A DNA stretch of 32,000 nt from Candidatus Heimdallarchaeota archaeon (GTDB taxonomy: Archaea > Asgardarchaeota > Heimdallarchaeia > JABLTI01): positions 1 through 32,000 of the forward strand of contig JAUWKS010000024.1 of NCBI GenBank assembly GCA_030614005.1, given 5' to 3'. Position 1 is the first letter of the stretch. Each line of letters begins with the position of its first letter. Below the pieces are notes generated by a model that was not told the origin of the DNA, searched no databases, and saw only the letters and a list, made by a program, of their open reading frames with translations. Shown here in pieces: positions 1-12,369 of the stretch. The position numbers were made by a program, and so were the translations under genes.

Positions 1-182
1 AGAACTATTCCAAGTCCTTCTGCTTCTTTAGGTAGAAGATCAGACCAAACTAAATCGGTCCTAACTCTTGGTTTGGATGGGGGTAATGTAAGTATTGGAA
101 CCCACTCTCTTGGAGTAGTTACTTCTAAAGGAAACTTTTGAGTTGCTTTGGTTCGTTTATTAAAATTATTTATTTTAGTCAT
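1..182 (-). CDS. Hypothetical protein, 3'-truncated by the window edge; third gene of the Cas1-fusion operon
   Basis: ATG at 182-180, 14 nt after the Cas1-fusion stop, with a GGTGA RBS (acaggtgaattacATG). Frame is open to position 1: MTKINNFNKRTKATQKFPLEVTTPREWVPILTLPPSKPRVRTDLVWSDLLPKEAEGLGIV... Confidence 0.65.
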   Translation of the reverse strand, partial: MTKINNFNKRTKATQKFPLEVTTPREWVPILTLPPSKPRVRTDLVWSDLLPKEAEGLGIV

Positions 183-3594: not shown

Positions 3595-4302
3595 CTATGT
3601 TCTCTGCCCTTCCTGACATCGAAAGAAAAGACAATTCTCAACTTTGAGCAAGTATTTGTATTCCTCTTGAGTAAGCTCTGGAAACTGAGCACTATCCAGA
3701 AGAAAGGAAAACTGAGGTCTTCGACACTTATGTCGGTGAAGCCCACCAATAATGACATCTAAATCAATAACCTCGTCTTGGCATCTGTATTTAGTTAGCG
3801 GATTAAGAAAGACAATTTGTTCTGTCGTTGGACAGACTTTGTTCACCACTAAATCTCTTAGTTTTTTATAGGTTAACAGAATAAAATCTGCAGTAGTATG
3901 GTTCTGAGATTTAAAGTCCTTGTCAATTTCATCCTTCAAATTATAGATCATATTATAGAGCTTACAACTAGTAGCGTATTTGGTTAATTCTTGTAGTAAT
4001 GCTTCCCCATCTTTCTTTGACTTTACAACAATAAAGACCGGAAATGGAGTGTGTTTTCTCAGAGCTAATATTCGACGAACAGTAAGAGAAACAAGAGTTG
4101 GATTAAGACAACGTTTTTTTGGTTGATAGTTTTTACAAATTAAAGCAAGACTTTTGTCATTTAGCACTAGTAATTTTTGCTCTTCTGTAGTTAAGTCCGT
4201 TAATACAGGGTCATCTAACAATTTTCCTTGCTCTAATATAGAAGTAATACCTAAGGAAAGGCAAAGAGGGATGCTCTTTTTCGGGAATGTTTCTGTACTC
4301 AT
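3595..4302 (-). CDS. Inactivated SF2 (Hel308/Ski2-like) RecA1 helicase domain
   Basis: Order and spacing of elements match a DExH domain 1: Q-like LTTEEQKLL, motif Ia-like VFIVVKSK, motif Ib-like ADFILLTYKKL, post-motif II LDVIIGGL, motif III-like FLLDSA. Walker A (GKT) and DExH are missing. ATG start with a gagttga RBS-like sequence. Confidence 0.6.
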   Translation of the reverse strand: MSTETFPKKSIPLCLSLGITSILEQGKLLDDPVLTDLTTEEQKLLVLNDKSLALICKNYQPKKRCLNPTLVSLTVRRILALRKHTPFPVFIVVKSKKDGEALLQELTKYATSCKLYNMIYNLKDEIDKDFKSQNHTTADFILLTYKKLRDLVVNKVCPTTEQIVFLNPLTKYRCQDEVIDLDVIIGGLHRHKCRRPQFSFLLDSAQFPELTQEEYKYLLKVENCLFFRCQEGQRT

Positions 4303-4508
4303 TATATCAACTCACAAAGGAGGGGTAGCTCTTCCAATAACCGGAAGATATCTCTCTGTATTCTTTTTGTCGGTTTTATTTATAAAGAGCTAAAAAACGC
4401 CCTTTTCCTTTATAAGCGGCAGAAAAAACGACATTCCTTTCTGATTATAATAGAAATTGTGTTTACTACTTTTTTTTATTTAAAATTACTTGTTTCTCAA
4501 TAGTTTTT

Positions 4509-4578
4509 CGCACAAGTGCGCCCGAAGGGTTGACTTCCGTAGGAAGGCAGATAGCACTATGCGAATCGGCTCCGAGCC
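4509..4578. other. Cluster of five adjacent GC-rich mini-hairpins (structured ssDNA or RNA element)
   Basis: CGCAC-aa-GTGCG, CCC-gaa-GGG, CTTCC-gta-GGAAG, ATAG-ca-CTAT, GGCT-ccg-AGCC within 70 nt of otherwise AT-rich intergenic DNA. Confidence 0.6.
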
Positions 4579-4610
4579 AGAGCATTGAAAGAACAATCAA
4601 TATTTTACAA

Positions 4611-6239
4611 CTATACTTTCAAATGAAAGAATTCCTTGACAAATGAATACAAAACTGTATTGTAAAATCTCCTCCCTTTAGGGATAGGGAGTGAAAAATA
4701 ATTACAAAATCTCTTTTTATAGTCTTTTAATAATTGATTTTGCTTGCCAATAAAAAAGAAATAGTTATTTTTGTTCAATTGTATTCCTTGTAACATTGTT
4801 AAAAGTACATCATTTGGTTGTGTATCCAATACACAAGTAGAATTAGTTGATTGAAAAGTTAATTTCTGATTTTCTGTGAAAAATCGTTGGAATGAATAAT
4901 TTGTTTGTATAAAAAAACGCTTGAGAAAGGAAATCGGTATCGCAGTAGCATTCCGTTCATATTGTGAAACCAAACTTTGAGTAATACGAAAGTTTTTAGC
5001 TAGTTCTTTTTGTGTTTGAGTACCGCGTAATGTTTTCAGAAACCCCCCTAACCCTCTAATGCTTATATGTGGTAGTTTTGTATAATCAAAAAAACCATCT
5101 AGTAATTTATCTTCTTTAAAAGCAAGAACCTGTCCTTTCCAGAACCCTTCCTTCAATAAAGTATGTGGTCGAGGAGAAAAACGATTAATTTTTCTTGCTA
5201 GAATTGTCTTTATCTCTGCTTGTTTTTGCGGATGAGCTGTTCCCACTAAATCAGTAAAGTCTTTCCTTGATCGCCCTAAAATACTGACACTATAGGTTAT
5301 ACCTCCAAAAACTTCTTGTTGGTAGTTCTGAAACGTGATATTATGTTGTTGTAGAAATGTCTCAAAGTCTGTAATCAATCTCCGGGAGGCAGAACCAAAT
5401 AATATTGTTGATTTGTAACTTCCATCTGCATCCATTAATCCTCGCCAGAACGCACATCTCATTACTTTATCCGTTTGAAACAAAAACGGTTCGCATAGTG
5501 AAGGATATTTCCGTTCATTTATCGGTTGTCCCGAAAGAAAATTAAAAAACCGAACGATCCATTTACCAAGTATATTTATATTCCAAGCTTGAGCATTTTT
5601 CTGAGGAAAAAACTCAATATTTGATTGGAAATTCTCTTCCAATAACTTCTCTAGATTCTCTATATGCTCTTTTGAATTATCAATGATATTAATAAAATAC
5701 TCTGCGAGATGACCATCACCCATGATAACTCCTACTAAATAAGCAATGTCTTCGGTAAGAAATAGAGGTAGCTGAAAACCTTCTCCTCGTGCAGATTGAA
5801 ACTGGATATATTGTTTTCCTTGAAAGAATCTTTCCCAAGAGGGAAACAACCGGAAAAGAGGAAAGGGGATGCGTTGTTGCTCTTCCAGATAGGAAATGAT
5901 CTTTTGTTGCCAAATACGAATGGACTTATTGTAATTAGAATTCAAAAAATAATGATGAGCTTTTTCTGCGAGAGCAAGAGAATGCTTCCTAATGACGGTA
6001 ACAATATTTGTGTCTAGGAGAATATACGGAAAGGATTGCAGTATTCGTTCTCCGGAAACAAAATCGTTCTTTCGGATCATAAAAGAATAAAGCTGGAATT
6101 GAGCATTAGCTGTAAAAATCTTCTCTCTTTGACCACTCTCTATAATGTCATTTGTTGCTAACCAAGTATTCGGGATAAGAGGTTCAGGGTCAACTAGTAA
6201 TGGATCCGTTCGCCAATTGAGAAAATCTTGCATGATCAT
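4611..6239 (-). CDS. Free-standing LAGLIDADG-family endonuclease-like protein with XRE-type HTH
   Basis: Two LAGLIDADG helices (IAYLVGVIMGDGHL; FWRGLMDADGS) and an HTH (TQKELAKNFRITQSLVSQYE). No intein Hint termini. Confidence 0.8.
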   Translation of the reverse strand: MIMQDFLNWRTDPLLVDPEPLIPNTWLATNDIIESGQREKIFTANAQFQLYSFMIRKNDFVSGERILQSFPYILLDTNIVTVIRKHSLALAEKAHHYFLNSNYNKSIRIWQQKIISYLEEQQRIPFPLFRLFPSWERFFQGKQYIQFQSARGEGFQLPLFLTEDIAYLVGVIMGDGHLAEYFINIIDNSKEHIENLEKLLEENFQSNIEFFPQKNAQAWNINILGKWIVRFFNFLSGQPINERKYPSLCEPFLFQTDKVMRCAFWRGLMDADGSYKSTILFGSASRRLITDFETFLQQHNITFQNYQQEVFGGITYSVSILGRSRKDFTDLVGTAHPQKQAEIKTILARKINRFSPRPHTLLKEGFWKGQVLAFKEDKLLDGFFDYTKLPHISIRGLGGFLKTLRGTQTQKELAKNFRITQSLVSQYERNATAIPISFLKRFFIQTNYSFQRFFTENQKLTFQSTNSTCVLDTQPNDVLLTMLQGIQLNKNNYFFFIGKQNQLLKDYKKRFCNYFSLPIPKGRRFYNTVLYSFVKEFFHLKV

Positions 6240-6352
6240 TCTCCTAGTAAATAGTAAGAAATTGTACTTTTAAAGGCATCTTTGTTTAGCTGTTCGAAAA
6301 ACTAAAAGATTAAGTATTCTTTTAAATAAAGGATAATACTTTCAGTCATCTC

Positions 6353-6381
6353 TTTAGCTAAATGAAATATATTTAGCTAAA
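6353..6381. repeat. Left-end subterminal palindrome of the IS605-type element
   Basis: TTTAGCTAAAT-gaaatat-ATTTAGCTAAA, perfect 11-bp inverted repeat 22 nt upstream of tnpB. Confidence 0.7.
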
Positions 6382-6402
6382 CAATAACAGTATGAAGAAA
6401 AA

Positions 6403-7902
6403 ATGCTCTCAAAAGAACAACGCCTCACAAGAAAAGCATACAAAACACTATTAGCTGATTTGCCAAAGGACGAACTAGAAAAAGCATTAGAACAAATAGG
6501 GCAGATAACAAAACCAGAAGCAAAGAAAAAACCATTACTGCTAACCACTAAAGTAAAGATCCACCCAACACCAGAACAAGAAAAGGTTCTCTGGGTACTA
6601 GCAGAAAACTGTCGGTTAATACATTACTTTGCTAATAAAGAGCGAAAAGAATGGTGGGATAAAAATGAGCATTTACCCAAAAAGAAACAAGATAAAAAGA
6701 ATAGACCGACCTATCACAAGCAGTCAGCACAATTGCCAAAATTAAAAAAGCAATATCCCAGATACAAACAGAACTATGCCAAAACTTTGCAAGAAACACT
6801 CAAACAATTAGAAGCGGATTACAAATCATTTTTTGCATTAAGAAGGAATGTCGATTCAGATGCCAAACCTCCCCGCTTCAAAGGAAAGAAATATTTTACT
6901 ACTATCCACTATAACCAGAGCGGATTCAAGATTGAAGGGAATAAGATTACTTTTAGCCATTTTTATCCAACGAAGGAAACAAAAGAGGTAGATTTAACTT
7001 TTGAGATGGAAGGGAAATTGACTTTCAATGGTAAGCTGGTCAAGCAAGCAACCCTCTTTCAAAAGCACAAGACTAAAGAGTTTTTCTTAGCGATCATTTA
7101 CGAAGAGGAAACACCAACCTACTATGACAATGGCATCTATCAGACAATAGACCTCGGAGTAATCAACCTTGTTGCAGCAACGAATAGCCATGCAGGAAAG
7201 TCATTTATAATCAAAAACAAGCGCGTGGACAAATATTGGCAACGAAAAATAGAGGAAATACAAGGTAAACGGGATCATTGTAAAAAATACTCTAATCGAT
7301 GGCATTGGCTCAATAACAAAATGTGGAAAATGATACGAAAACAAGCAAACCAGTTTAAAGATTTTCAGCACAAAATAAGCAAACAAGTGGTCGAGAACTC
7401 CAGAGCAAACACGATTATCATTGGTGATCTGAACGTTAAGGAAATGTCGAAGGGTAAAAAGAGAGATAAAAAGAACGATAAAAGCAGACATAGAACTATG
7501 CAAAGTACTGGTTCCCTTGGTCGCTTCGCTCGATACTTAACCTACAAAGCACAACGAGTAGGTAAGAAAGTAATAAGGATCAGTGAACGAGATACAACCA
7601 AACTATGCACCTATTGTATGAATAAGGAGAACAGAGCCCTCTCCGAACGAACTATCAGTTGTGATTGTGGGTTAGTAATAGGTCGAGACACAAGCAGTTC
7701 AGGAACACAAATGCAGCGCTTCCTCGCTTTACTAGCACTATCACAGAAACGCCTTGTGGTCAGGCAACGACTCTTGAAGGAATTTCGAGAGAAGTTTTTT
7801 GCGATACACAGCCAAACGTCAAACGAAAGTTCCTCCTGTATTGGAGTTGGGCGGACTCGCAGCGAATCAAAAGTTAACAGAAACGCTTTAAGCGTTCGTT
7901 AA
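6403..7902 (+). CDS. tnpB: RNA-guided endonuclease TnpB (IS605 OrfB family) with rearranged RuvC-II
   Basis: N-terminal KVKIHPTPEQEKVL (OrfB HTH), PPRFK, RuvC-I IDLG (D250), RuvC-II IIIGDL (G341) with alternative Glu in ISERDTTK (E395), Zn finger CTYC...CDCG, RuvC-III RD (D429). Confidence 0.9.
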   Translation: MLSKEQRLTRKAYKTLLADLPKDELEKALEQIGQITKPEAKKKPLLLTTKVKIHPTPEQEKVLWVLAENCRLIHYFANKERKEWWDKNEHLPKKKQDKKNRPTYHKQSAQLPKLKKQYPRYKQNYAKTLQETLKQLEADYKSFFALRRNVDSDAKPPRFKGKKYFTTIHYNQSGFKIEGNKITFSHFYPTKETKEVDLTFEMEGKLTFNGKLVKQATLFQKHKTKEFFLAIIYEEETPTYYDNGIYQTIDLGVINLVAATNSHAGKSFIIKNKRVDKYWQRKIEEIQGKRDHCKKYSNRWHWLNNKMWKMIRKQANQFKDFQHKISKQVVENSRANTIIIGDLNVKEMSKGKKRDKKNDKSRHRTMQSTGSLGRFARYLTYKAQRVGKKVIRISERDTTKLCTYCMNKENRALSERTISCDCGLVIGRDTSSSGTQMQRFLALLALSQKRLVVRQRLLKEFREKFFAIHSQTSNESSSCIGVGRTRSESKVNRNALSVR

Positions 7903-7920
7903 CCAAGATAGACCATAAAA
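7730..7920 (+). ncRNA. Predicted omegaRNA (sense-overlapping RNA) of the tnpB element; boundaries approximate
   Basis: Long low-complexity C-terminal tail after RuvC-III overlapping the right end, as is typical for TnpB omegaRNA. Terminal hairpin GTTAAC-aga-AACGCT-tta-AGCGTT-c-GTTAAC at 7873-7903. Confidence 0.45.
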
Positions 7921-8128
7921 CTATTCAAAGTGAAATATTTTGATTATAAACTACTTCAATAAATAATTTTCAAACTAAAGATAAACTCACCTCGTTAGCC
8001 TACGAAAATATTACAAAACAGATGGTTTACTGTTTGTTTTCTCTATTCGGATAGCAATCGGATAATAACTTATTAAAAGAGTCAATCTTGAATGAAAGAG
8101 AGTATAGTAAAATTTTGAGGAGATTTTC

Positions 8129-9043
8129 TTGGATAAAAAAAGGAAAATTGTTGAATCTGTTCCAAATTATAGCGAAGGAACTGATGGAAAAGTCGTTGAA
8201 GCAATTGTCGATGAAATACGAAAAACACCAAAAACAAACATCATCGATATACAATACGATTCTGATTACAATAGAGCAGTAATTACCTTCGTTGGTGAAC
8301 CGGAAGCAGTATTACAAGCAAATATTGCTGCATCAAAGAAAGCTCTTGAACTAATTGATATGACAAAACACAAAGGTCAACATCCACGCATTGGTGCAAC
8401 AGATGTAGTGCCATTTGTGCCTGCTCAGAATGTTTCAATGGAAGAATGTATTGAACTTTCTAAGAAATATGCAGAAGCTATGGCTACCGAAGGTGTTCCA
8501 ATTTACCTCTATGAAGAGGCTGCAACAAGACCTGAGCGTCGGGACATAGATAATATTCGTGTTGGAGATTACGAAGGATTACGCGAAACTATCAAAACAA
8601 ATCCAGATCACAAACCAGACTTTGGTCCTTCAGAATTCCATCCAAAAGGTGGTGCAACAGTAACCGGAGCAAGAATGGCTTTGGTTTGTTTAAACATCAA
8701 TTTAGGAACCACAAATGTCAAAGTTGCTAAAAGAGTAGCTCGAAGAGTGCATCTTGCTTCAGGTGGGTTAGTTAACATTAAAGCAATGGGCACAGCAATT
8801 GAAGGTAAGGATTATGTTCAAGTTGGTATTAGTAATATCAATTTTAAGAAAACGCCAATGTATAGACAGTTAGAACTTGTTCGGATTGAAGCTGCAAGAT
8901 ATGGTGTATCAGTTATCGGAACTGAACTTGTTGGACCAATTCCTTTAGAATCAGTGCTAAATTCTCTCGAGTATTATCTTCAAATAAACAATCCCAAGCA
9001 CTTGAAAGAAGAACACTTAATCGAACACTATTTCGATTTTTAA
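8129..9043 (+). CDS. ftcD: Glutamate formiminotransferase (FTCD N-terminal domain only)
   Basis: IVESVPNYSEG, DSDYNRAVITFVG, IDMTKHKGQHPRIGATDVVPFVP, PDFGP, GATVTGAR. TTG start with gaggag RBS. Confidence 0.93.
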   Translation: MDKKRKIVESVPNYSEGTDGKVVEAIVDEIRKTPKTNIIDIQYDSDYNRAVITFVGEPEAVLQANIAASKKALELIDMTKHKGQHPRIGATDVVPFVPAQNVSMEECIELSKKYAEAMATEGVPIYLYEEAATRPERRDIDNIRVGDYEGLRETIKTNPDHKPDFGPSEFHPKGGATVTGARMALVCLNINLGTTNVKVAKRVARRVHLASGGLVNIKAMGTAIEGKDYVQVGISNINFKKTPMYRQLELVRIEAARYGVSVIGTELVGPIPLESVLNSLEYYLQINNPKHLKEEHLIEHYFDF

Positions 9044-9058
9044 GTCAAATAATAGATT

Positions 9059-9077
9059 TTGCGAGTAAAACTCGCAA
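9059..9077. terminator. Hairpin between convergent ftcD and hutI
   Basis: TTGCGAGT-aaa-ACTCGCAA, flanked by T-rich runs, in a 45-nt convergent gap. Confidence 0.55.
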
Positions 9078-9088
9078 TTTAATCTTTT

Positions 9089-10378
9089 TTAATTTTCAAT
9101 AACTATTAGACCATTTTTGATAACTTTGGAGACAAGGTTTACTCCAAACTGGTATGATAAGAAATAATGATTTGCAACATCAAAAATTACTATATCAGCT
9201 TTTTTACCAACTTCCAAACTACCAACAGTACTTTCTCTTTGAATTGCACATGCAGCATTAATTGTTGCTGCTGTTAAGGCTTCAGCGGGAGACATTTTCA
9301 TGTTATAACAAGAAAGAACAATTACCATTAACATAGATTCTGTCCAACAATTTGGATTAAGATCTGTAGCAATAGCAACTGGTATACCATATTCAATCAT
9401 CTTCCTTGCAGGCGCGTAATCTTTCATCATTAAACAAAAGGGAGTGCCTGGTAACAAAGTAGCAATAACCTTTTCTTTAGCCATTGCTTTCAAACCTTCA
9501 TCATTTGACTGGAGTAAGTGCCCTGTTTGAACTGCCTGTAATTCTGCAGCAAGAGCAGCACCATTTGTATCAACAATTTCATCAATATGAATAACAGATT
9601 TTATGCTGCGTTTTTTTGCAGCAAGTAATATTTTTCGAGTTTGCTCTATTGAAAAAATACCCTTTTCACAAAAGACATCGCAAAATTCAGCAAGGCTTTG
9701 TTCTTCTATTATTGGAAGCATTTCATTGATGATCAAATCAACATATTCATCTGTTCTTCCTTTATATTCAGGAGGTATAGCATGAGCTCCGAGAAAAGTA
9801 GCAACTAAATCTATTGGATGCTGTTTGTCCAGTTCCTTGATTGCTTTGAGTGATTTTATTTCAGCTTCTACAGATAAACCATAACCAGATTTTGCCTCTA
9901 CTGTAGTGGTGCCGTATTGAAGCATTTTATCTAGTATATTTGCTCCATTTTTTACTAAATCTTCTATTGAAGCTTTTCTAGTTTCTCTGACAGTTTTCAG
10001 AATTCCTCCACCTGATTCAAGAATTTCTAAATAGGTTTTACCAGCGAGTTTCATAGATAGTTCATTTTCCCGAGAACCAGAAAAAATAAGGTGAACGTGT
10101 GGATCCACAAATCCAGGGGTAACCAATTTACCAGTAGCATCTACAACTGCTGTTTGATTACCAATTTTCATTTTCTTTAGAAACTCATCTGAAGTGCCAA
10201 CGAAAATTATCTTATCGTTTTTTATAGCAATTGCTCCATCTTTAATAATAGCTAATTCACTCATTGCCTTACCAACACGTGGTGCACCAATCTTTGAGTC
10301 CATGGTGACCAATTCATTTGCATGTAAAATTACTAAATCAGGAATTTCTTTACTAAAATCACTCTTATTGGAGGACAC
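9089..10378 (-). CDS. hutI: Imidazolonepropionase
   Basis: TPGFVDPHVHL, GGGILKTVRETR, GTTTVEAKSGYGL, TFLGAHAIP, FCDVFCE, ATDLNP. Confidence 0.95.
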   Translation of the reverse strand: MSSNKSDFSKEIPDLVILHANELVTMDSKIGAPRVGKAMSELAIIKDGAIAIKNDKIIFVGTSDEFLKKMKIGNQTAVVDATGKLVTPGFVDPHVHLIFSGSRENELSMKLAGKTYLEILESGGGILKTVRETRKASIEDLVKNGANILDKMLQYGTTTVEAKSGYGLSVEAEIKSLKAIKELDKQHPIDLVATFLGAHAIPPEYKGRTDEYVDLIINEMLPIIEEQSLAEFCDVFCEKGIFSIEQTRKILLAAKKRSIKSVIHIDEIVDTNGAALAAELQAVQTGHLLQSNDEGLKAMAKEKVIATLLPGTPFCLMMKDYAPARKMIEYGIPVAIATDLNPNCWTESMLMVIVLSCYNMKMSPAEALTAATINAACAIQRESTVGSLEVGKKADIVIFDVANHYFLSYQFGVNLVSKVIKNGLIVIEN

Positions 10379-10539
10379 TTTCTTACACTCCTATTTACTG
10401 AACAAATCCTTCAAGGGATAGACCTTTTAATAAATTTCCTTTAATAGATAGAAAAAATATAACAAATATTTAAAAAATCTAAAATAGGCATAAGATATCA
10501 TATAGAAGTTCGTTTAGTAACGAATGAAATCAACAGGAA

Positions 10540-12369
10540 TTGTTTAGTTTGACGGATCTAAAGAAGGAAATCGAAGTTTATGATCGACCTATGTATATGG
10601 ATTTGAAACCTGAAAAATCACTTGAAGCTGATGAAAGTGATAAAATTCTTCATTGTAAAACTTGGGATACAGAAGCGGCACTCCGAATGCTTTACAATAA
10701 TCTTAATCCAAAAGTTGCGCGTAACTGGGAAGAACTAATTGTTTATGGTGGCTCAGGTAGAGCAGCTCGTAATTGGAAAGAGTTTCACAAAATCGTTAGA
10801 GCACTAAAGGAACTCGAACCCGACGAGACACTTTGTATTCAATCCGGAAAAGCAGTTTATATTGCTCCAACGCATACAGAAGCACCTCGAGTGATTATTG
10901 CTAATTCAAATTTGGTTGGCAATTGGGCTACTCAAGGTTATTTCGATGATTTAGATCGTCTTGGATTAATGATGTATGGACAAATGACTGCTGGCAGTTG
11001 GATATACATTGGTACTCAAGGAATTCTTCAAGGAACCTATGAGAGTTTTGCTGCTTCTGCAAAGATTGATTTCAATGCAGATTCTTTGGCTGGAAAACTC
11101 ATCCTAACGGGAGGTATGGGAGCAATGTCGGGTGCGCAACCAATGGCAGCAACGTTGAATGATGCAGTTATTCTCGATGTTGAAGTTAAAGAATCAGAAA
11201 TCGCTCGTAAAGTAGAAGAAGATTACTGTGATAGATTAACCACTAGTCTTGATGAAGCTATTGAATGGGCAATGGAAGCAAAGAAGAAGAAAGAACCTCT
11301 CTCGATTGGTTTAGTTGGCAACGCAGCTGAAACTCATCCAGAATTAGTAAAAAGGGGAATTATTCCTGACATAGTTACAGATCAAACTAGTGCACATGAA
11401 GTAAAGAAATATGTTCCTGTTGGTTATGACAAGAATTATGTAGAATTGCTTGAAAGTGGTGTGAAAATACGAGAAGGAGAATATGTACGTGAATCCTTCA
11501 AAGCAATGGCTTCACATGTAAAAGCAATGATCGATATGCAAGCAAAAGGGGCTATTGTTTTCGATTATGGAAATGCTATAAGAAATCAAGTAGAACTTGC
11601 ACTTAATATTGTTAATAATAGAGCTCCACCAGAAAATAACATGACGGGAGAAGATGTAGCAGATCTAAAACAACACCTTAAGAAAATAGGCATACAATCT
11701 GTTCGAAATGAGCAAGGTGGATATGTTTTTCCAGGATTTGTTCTGAAATACGTTCGACCACTATTCTGTGAAGGAAAAGGACCGTTTAGATGGGCTTGTC
11801 TTTCTGGTAGTGCTAAAGATTTAGCTGCTATCGACGATGCATTACTCTCCACATTCCCTGATGATAAACCACTCACACGATGGATTGATCGTGTAAGAGA
11901 AAAAGTGCCCATATTAGGATTGCCTACAAGAATTTGCTGGTTAGGGTATGGTGAACGGGCGAAATTTGGTTTAATTATTAATGACTTAATCAAAGATGGA
12001 ACAGTAACTGCACCTGTTGTTATTGGCAGAGATCATCTTGATTGTGGTTCTGTTGCTTCCCCAAGCAGAGAAACTGAAGGTATGAAAGATGGTAGTGATG
12101 CTATTGCTGATTGGCCATTGCTTAATTTCGCACTCAATGGTATAAATGGAGCTAGTTGGGTTTCATTCCATCATGGTGGTGGAGTCGGTATCGGTAATTC
12201 CTTACATGCAGGAATGGTTATCGTTGCAGATGGCTCTCCGGAAAGAGAAAAAAGATTACAAAGAGTTCTCACTATTGATCCTGGAATAGGCATTGCTAGA
12301 CATGCAGATGCAGGCTATGATAAAGCAATTAGAATAGCTGAAGAACGAAAAATCAAAATACCAAAATAA
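10540..12369 (+). CDS. hutU: Urocanate hydratase
   Basis: [72 protein letters not shown]. Confidence 0.97.

Follow-up and report, generated by a model that had tools for sequence, protein, structure and literature searches.

A TnpB with a rearranged RuvC site at the right end of a 16.8-kb Heimdallarchaeian insertion that carries a Cas1-fold fusion gene

Two of the five major clades of TnpB, and eight large branches, are characterised by a rearranged RuvC-II motif; in the largest of them Glu is changed to Gly (PMC10691335). An archaeal rearranged protein, TvTnpB, has been tested and is active, and mutation of E467 in the mimivirus Fanzor2 abolishes cleavage (PMC10530073). Among TnpBs with an alternative Glu two clades are distinguished, one with D-hydrophobic-G and one with DPG, and only the DPG clade contains the Fanzors and the cyanobacterial IS607 pro-Fanzors, and the published Fanzor fingerprint is the combination of DPG and alternative Glu found in cyanobacterial IS607 TnpBs (PMC10711439). 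Fanzors are derived from these pro-Fanzors in published work. A TnpB branch associated with serine recombinases carries helicase and WhiA/meganuclease cargo, and Asgard loci with aCas1 and TnpB have been proposed as transposons (PMC10691335). The tnpB gene described here comes from a Candidatus Heimdallarchaeota archaeon of JABLTI01, the Gerdarchaeota lineage inside Heimdallarchaeia (PMC9723677), and was analysed within a stretch of 32,000 nucleotides (contig JAUWKS010000024.1, positions 1 to 32,000), hereafter the window. On balance, it probably encodes an IS605-derived predicted nuclease, not a pro-Fanzor, that was recruited by an Asgard aCas1 transposon moved by a Cas1 fusion protein. The features of the locus are given below with their positions in the window.

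1-182, minus strand: start of a DEAD/MrfA-Zn/metallophosphoesterase helicase gene, continuing on contig C18
196-3570, minus strand: rest of the Cas1 fusion gene, 1124 aa, with the Cas1 fold at about aa 600-930 and E683, H767, D783 and E786 invariant
3595-4302, minus strand: N-terminal part of the Cas1 fusion (235 aa), cut short by the in-frame stop TAG at 3595-3597
4611-6239, minus strand: LAGLIDADG-HTH gene, 542 aa, which constantly lies divergent to this tnpB in the large elements
6240-6402, no strand: divergent intergenic region, common to LAGLIDADG/tnpB pairs and short derivatives
6403-7902, plus strand: tnpB, intact, 499 aa, with rearranged RuvC-II and an N-terminal extension of about 45 aa
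7150-7152, plus strand: RuvC-I Asp250, in DLG, not DPG (sequence and homologue alignment)
7423-7425, plus strand: Gly341 at the canonical RuvC-II Glu position (sequence, structure-based alignment and homologues)
7585-7587, plus strand: alternative Glu395, six residues ahead of the Zn finger (aligned with E467 of the mimivirus Fanzor2)
7606-7668, plus strand: Zn finger C402/C405/C420/C422 (sequence and homologue alignment)
7687-7689, plus strand: RuvC-III Asp429 (sequence and homologue alignment)
7735-7916, plus strand: predicted omegaRNA scaffold, overlapping the 3' end of tnpB, with a closing stem of about 7738-7742 with 7907-7911
7895-7916, plus strand: right end of the element, ending in ACCAT; 16 exact genome copies of the last 16 nt, all with different flanks
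7917-7936, plus strand: host flank, putative guide source, as conservation is lost sharply past 7916
8129-9043, plus strand: host FTCD gene, outside the element, adjoining the FttA/beta-CASP gene of C18 in nine of nine matched genus relatives

The tnpB gene is the last gene, at the right end, of a 16,763-bp insertion that carries, in this order, a type I restriction-modification (RM) system, the helicase, the Cas1-fold fusion (broken by the TAG in this copy), LAGLIDADG-HTH and TnpB. The left part lies on contig C18, which overlaps the first 95 nt of the window identically, and the join is supported by synteny in relatives. Beyond the overlap, C18 encodes the helicase, hsdM, hsdS and hsdR, followed by the left-end motif at C18:8942. 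A separate insertion of tnpB beside a Cas1 island is disfavoured, since the left end is located past the helicase and the RM genes and not next to tnpB. The two ends form weak terminal inverted repeats, with complementarity at 13-15 of 22 positions. When the copies of the right end were compared, conservation was lost sharply after 7916, and their upstream sequences fell into two classes, one with a short left end and one with the LAGLIDADG-HTH pairing. About 13 copies are short, contain only tnpB, share the ends of the large element and are inserted at (R)TTAT; their left ends lie about 260 bp ahead of tnpB, as seen directly on C89, the others being cut by contig ends. LAGLIDADG-HTH is the most constant partner of tnpB, with 11 copies in this genome, and one locus (L003) is a full LAGLIDADG and TnpB two-gene unit with both ends. 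The four-gene order recurs with this TnpB in the genomes G004 and G006 and with an unrelated, canonical-site TnpB in G005 and G010 and on C9 and C63. Helicase fragments are retained in the deletion derivatives L006 and L324.

Further module versions and remnants were noted around this family. A second family in this genome (L101, C9:140901-152085) shares the Cas1/helicase/LAGLIDADG core, and carries a canonical-site TnpB with DPG; its subterminal inverted repeat is 18 bp long, and about 10 miniature copies of it occur. A third TnpB of this genome (L012, C78:4263-7254) belongs to a separate alternative-Glu clade and is divergent to a LAGLIDADG-HTH homologue, and in a distant version of the module (L102, C110:36000-44556) the Cas1 fusion is split into several genes. 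The TnpB copy L328 of G005 (C105:36696-38009) has four TAG stops and is probably decayed. Window positions 4500-4600, 3' of the LAGLIDADG stop, are a GC-rich non-coding stretch that might form a structured RNA, and the paralogues C86, L003, L004 and L009 have a different conserved GC-rich stretch in its place. The host neighbourhood at 8129-12369 consists of histidine-utilisation genes (FTCD, amidohydrolase, urocanate hydratase).

The two genes that flank the element lie next to each other in nine genus relatives; eight of these have no trace of the element at this site, and G010 retains a remnant of the left end. On the left side, the first AT of the element is preceded by (R)TT or GT. Where the filled site shows AT at each junction, one complete empty site in G010 has AT only once, and three half-sites are consistent with this. 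An earlier impression that no AT was shared at the window's own empty site, based on relatives of 75% identity, was overturned by the closer empty sites in G010. No target duplications of 5 bp or more were found among pairs of left and right flanks. Nor did DNA contigs contain joints of the sort that an excised circle would leave, a result that is neutral as to excision. Two readings fit the AT junctions: 2 bp that are duplicated or serve as a core, and a TTAT target of the Y1 type; in both cases the predicted TAM would be approximately TTAT. At C14:165 / C108:8726 of this genome, a short element apparently interrupts a frame that is continuous in G010.

Assignment of the protein to TnpB is based on the NCBIfam guided_TnpB profile (172 bits, cut-off 100) together with the presence of the RuvC/Zn-finger fold. 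The AlphaFold2 model (pLDDT 81) has a TnpB/Cas12f fold, with the TnpB of ISDra2 as the best structural match (Z 22.0) versus Z 18.1 for Fanzor2. G341 aligned with the position of the canonical RuvC-II motif of ISDra2 and with the Gly of the mimivirus Fanzor2 (9b0l), and E395, which directly follows the strand 389-394 in the model, aligned with E467 of the latter when counted from the alignment to the solved structure. Among 120 homologues D250 is conserved in all, G341 in 118 (two gaps), E395 in 116 (three gaps, one G) and D429 in 117, and this near-invariance argues that the active-site pattern is not due to chance. Gly at the RuvC-II Glu position with a Glu six residues before the Zn finger is the arrangement of the rearranged (alternative-Glu) TnpBs, and the initial annotation, which had proposed this group from D250, G341, E395 and D429 (nt 7150, 7423, 7585 and 7687), was borne out in the location of the residues, in the structure-based alignment and in the conservation of E395, whose absence it had named as refuting. 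It was also right about an Asgard host, since the closest homologues (70-83%) are labelled Heimdallarchaeota. D250, E395 and D429 would thus form the catalytic triad, with their convergence predicted by homology to the experimentally tested Fanzor2 residue. The RuvC-I motif is DLG, a form shared by 96 of the 120 closest homologues, none of which has DPG, and the second Zn pair is CxC. In RuvC-III the sequence is GRDTSS and not DRDxN, and the Asn is missing in the closest relatives too, so that nuclease activity stays a prediction. A TnpB that is catalytically dead or a mere binder, owing to the Gly swap and the eroded RuvC-III, is nevertheless improbable, given the conservation of the three acidic residues, DNA cutting by other rearranged TnpBs and the conserved structure of the predicted omegaRNA.

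The predicted omegaRNA region (7735-7916) has a consensus structure of 43 pairs, seven of them with compensatory changes, and a single-sequence z of -2.0, and had no significant family in Rfam. The conserved fold fits, as expected, a candidate omegaRNA whose guide would derive from the flank.

Most likely, the protein is an active nuclease that would cut DNA under RNA guidance, and it would belong to a type widespread in prokaryotes, 'D-hydrophobic-G plus alternative Glu' (RIIr-5-like or TnpB2-like), and not to the pro-Fanzors. The initial annotation had gone further, taking the Gly/Glu swap as the hallmark of Fanzors and their nearest relatives and the host lineage as relevant to Fanzor origins. 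The first of these claims does not hold, since the swap defines the two major clades and eight large branches mentioned above (PMC10691335), and the second loses its force because the clade of the query also occurs in MSBL1, Promethearchaeota, Bathyarchaeia, a Methanomethylovorans plasmid and the Firmicute Crassaminicella, so that the host says little about Fanzor origins. Three trees were computed, with the trait columns removed in the last two; their references comprised Fanzor2-type proteins from viral contigs only (among them L316, which matches 9b0l at E 2e-106), canonical TnpBs and profile hits, named pro-Fanzors and Fanzor1 not being included. A viral search with a canonical TnpB query gave no match. 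All three maximum likelihood (ML) trees place the query clade next to canonical TnpBs and apart from Fanzor2. In the careful tree, with trait columns removed, the query clade (98/95) is sister to canonical TnpBs (93/99) and the Fanzor2 clade (100/100) lies elsewhere. The tree requires at least four changes of the alternative-Glu state, and a single origin of all alternative-Glu groups was marginally rejected (p=0.040). A grouping of the query clade with Fanzor2 was not rejected by the AU test (LG+G4, 53 rows; p=0.142), deep TnpB trees being weak, and their sisterhood is therefore disfavoured rather than excluded. The phylogeny to which the initial annotation had appealed thus leans against it in the placement beside canonical TnpBs and leaves standing that a Fanzor2 sisterhood is unrejected.

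That the query clade is a sister or donor lineage of the Fanzors, inherited from Asgard archaea or transferred by them, is in our view very improbable. The same Gly/Glu swap at positions aligned with Fanzor2, the Asgard host, the AU result, a structural alignment with 9b0l that reaches into the N-terminal extension and the sporadic DPG found in some distant members of the wider clade can be cited in its favour. Against this, canonical TnpBs lie between the query clade and Fanzor2 in the ML trees; the protein has DLG where pro-Fanzors and Fanzor2 have DPG, and no IS607 serine-recombinase TnpA was found in the element; the clade is spread over many archaea and bacteria; the published origin is in cyanobacterial IS607 pro-Fanzors; and the N-terminal extension (window 6403-6540, about 45 aa, two helices) is restricted to a derived Heimdall subclade. 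The published fingerprint, DPG with alternative Glu, was also seen in prokaryotic TnpBs outside the Fanzor2 clade (P0151, P0153, P0176, P0177, P0197, P0200) and is thus not exclusive, and L316, a mimivirus-like reference, is without the P, so that DPG is not universal in Fanzor2. The active-site swap alone is ordinary, and such motifs in Asgard genomes are no evidence for Fanzor ancestry.

The Cas1 fusion has about 1370 aa when unbroken. The paralogues C48 and C63 have CAG at the position of the TAG, and the gene is intact in C63, C48 and C9; the stop allele is also present in the public runs X1 and X4. Readthrough of the TAG with pyrrolysine was considered and discarded, as no PylS above the cut-off was found. 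The Cas1 domain was missed by sequence searches of Pfam, ESM Atlas and PDB and was found only via PADLOC, which gave Cas1 matches in 13 of 21 fusion homologues, and via folding. With the confident model of the domain, the top Foldseek match was casposase 6opm (E 5e-7), and the top 18 matches were all casposase, Cas1 or Cas1-family structures. The catalytic E/H/D/E residues are invariant across the 21 homologues. Within the genus, the TnpB family was found in nine of ten genomes and the Cas1 family in only six of ten; this counts against movement by Cas1, as do the weak terminal repeats.

Which enzyme moves the element has to be weighed against the transposases usually found with TnpB. No Y1 TnpA was found in cis in the element, and no Y1, IS607 TnpA or resolvase in this genome (90% complete); across the genus, an intact Y1 was present in none of ten genomes and an IS607 TnpA in one of ten. 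We infer the movement by Cas1 from this absence of TnpA in incomplete MAGs, the transposase role of the fusion and all catalysis are predictions, and an unassembled TnpA is a real rival. An IS605-type ancestry of TnpB is indicated by a relative of 47% identity from another family, which is arranged divergently to a broken Y1 tnpA, as in the layout of IS605. It is unlikely, though to be taken seriously, that this is an ordinary rearranged TnpB with IS605 ends mobilised in trans, either by a Y1 TnpA or by a serine recombinase of the IS607 kind that uses an AT core, and that Cas1, helicase, LAGLIDADG and RM are cargo. In the textbook geometry of IS605 a left TTAT target is not duplicated, and in that of IS607 the core has 2 bp; the observed junctions fit both. 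With target TTAT, end CCAT and no duplication, they suit Y1 chemistry as well as movement by Cas1. The relative next to a Y1 tnpA, the broken Cas1 gene in this copy and the helicase and WhiA/meganuclease cargo known from the serine-recombinase branch (PMC10691335) point the same way. Yet neither TnpA was found in this genome and almost none in the ten genus genomes despite about 16 insertions, and the Cas1 catalytic residues are preserved throughout the homologues. The length of 16.8 kb also speaks against such movement, being a large size for single-strand transposition. We likewise see little chance that LAGLIDADG-HTH forms a two-gene unit with TnpB in which it, and not Cas1, would be the main driver of mobility or homing: its constancy as a partner and the complete unit at L003 would fit, but no recombinase domain was detected in the protein, the two-gene units resemble deletions of the four-gene module, and the tnpB-only copies lack LAGLIDADG-HTH too.

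In the preferred reading, movement by the Cas1 fusion, this protein would excise full and deleted elements and integrate them at (R)TTAT, and would be supplied by intact paralogues because the present copy has a nonsense codon. The omegaRNA would be transcribed from the 3' end of tnpB through the right end and would take its guide from the flank. TnpB would then cleave only the rejoined empty site, recognised by a TAM of approximately TTAT plus the flank, and the cut at the vacated site would lead to restoration of the element by repair. Restoration by cutting of the rejoined site is established for IS605 and IS607 TnpBs. A wider interpretation, to which we give somewhat less than an even chance, is that a polymerase-free, Cas1-driven transposon family of Heimdallarchaeia has captured TnpBs at least twice (one rearranged, one canonical), integrates specifically at TTAT while duplicating 2 bp, transports host-scale cargo, type I RM being an example, and mobilises tnpB-only miniatures in trans.

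This family makes the role of aCas1 as transposase of TnpB elements directly testable, as it offers both ends, intact paralogues of Cas1, a boundary for the omegaRNA, mini-elements that occur naturally and a predicted target and TAM of about TTAT. If true, the integrase fold of CRISPR and a Cas12 ancestor would be joined in a single natural mobile element, which would serve as a living model for their coming together and as a source of a compact nuclease from which collateral activity would be expected to be absent.

Compared with Fanzor2 and the pro-Fanzors (ApmFz2, PDB 9b0l), this TnpB shares the catalytic rearrangement at aligned positions and the overall fold, and differs by the lack of DPG and IS607 TnpA, its archaeal host, its separate ML branch and a structural identity of only about 19%. 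It is closer to the RIIr-5 branches (PMC10691335), TnpB2/TvTnpB (PMC10530073) and the D-hydrophobic-G alternative-Glu clade (PMC10711439), with which it has in common the Gly at the RuvC-II Glu position, the alternative Glu six residues before the Zn finger, the DLG in RuvC-I and, as predicted here, an omegaRNA overlapping the 3' end; unlike these, it has the 45-aa N-terminal extension, the CxC Zn pair, the eroded RuvC-III and no TnpA in cis. IS605 and IS1341 elements resemble it in the position of tnpB at the right end, the short T-rich target 5' of the left end and the non-autonomous tnpB-only copies, whereas here no Y1 TnpA was found and elements reach 16.8 kb. With casposons the element shares a Cas1-fold integrase with conserved catalytic residues, for which a casposase is the best structural match; it departs from them in its weak terminal repeats, a duplication of at most 2 bp and the TnpB it carries. 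No family B DNA polymerase was found among the ORFs of the element, all large ORFs of the 16.8 kb being otherwise assigned, and the GTTCACTCA motif described 3' of tnpB in Cas1H-Asgard loci is absent here with one mismatch allowed, so that the element is neither a confirmed Cas1H-Asgard member nor a casposon. Like the Asgard aCas1-TnpB loci Cas1H-Asgard-1 and -2 (PMC10691335), it has a diverged Cas1 beside TnpB in an Asgard genome and is bounded by repeats; unlike them, it has defined ends, target, empty sites and short derivatives and carries type I RM cargo. Our best reading is thus a TnpB of an already known type within an element of the aCas1 transposon kind that has been predicted in the literature and never tested.
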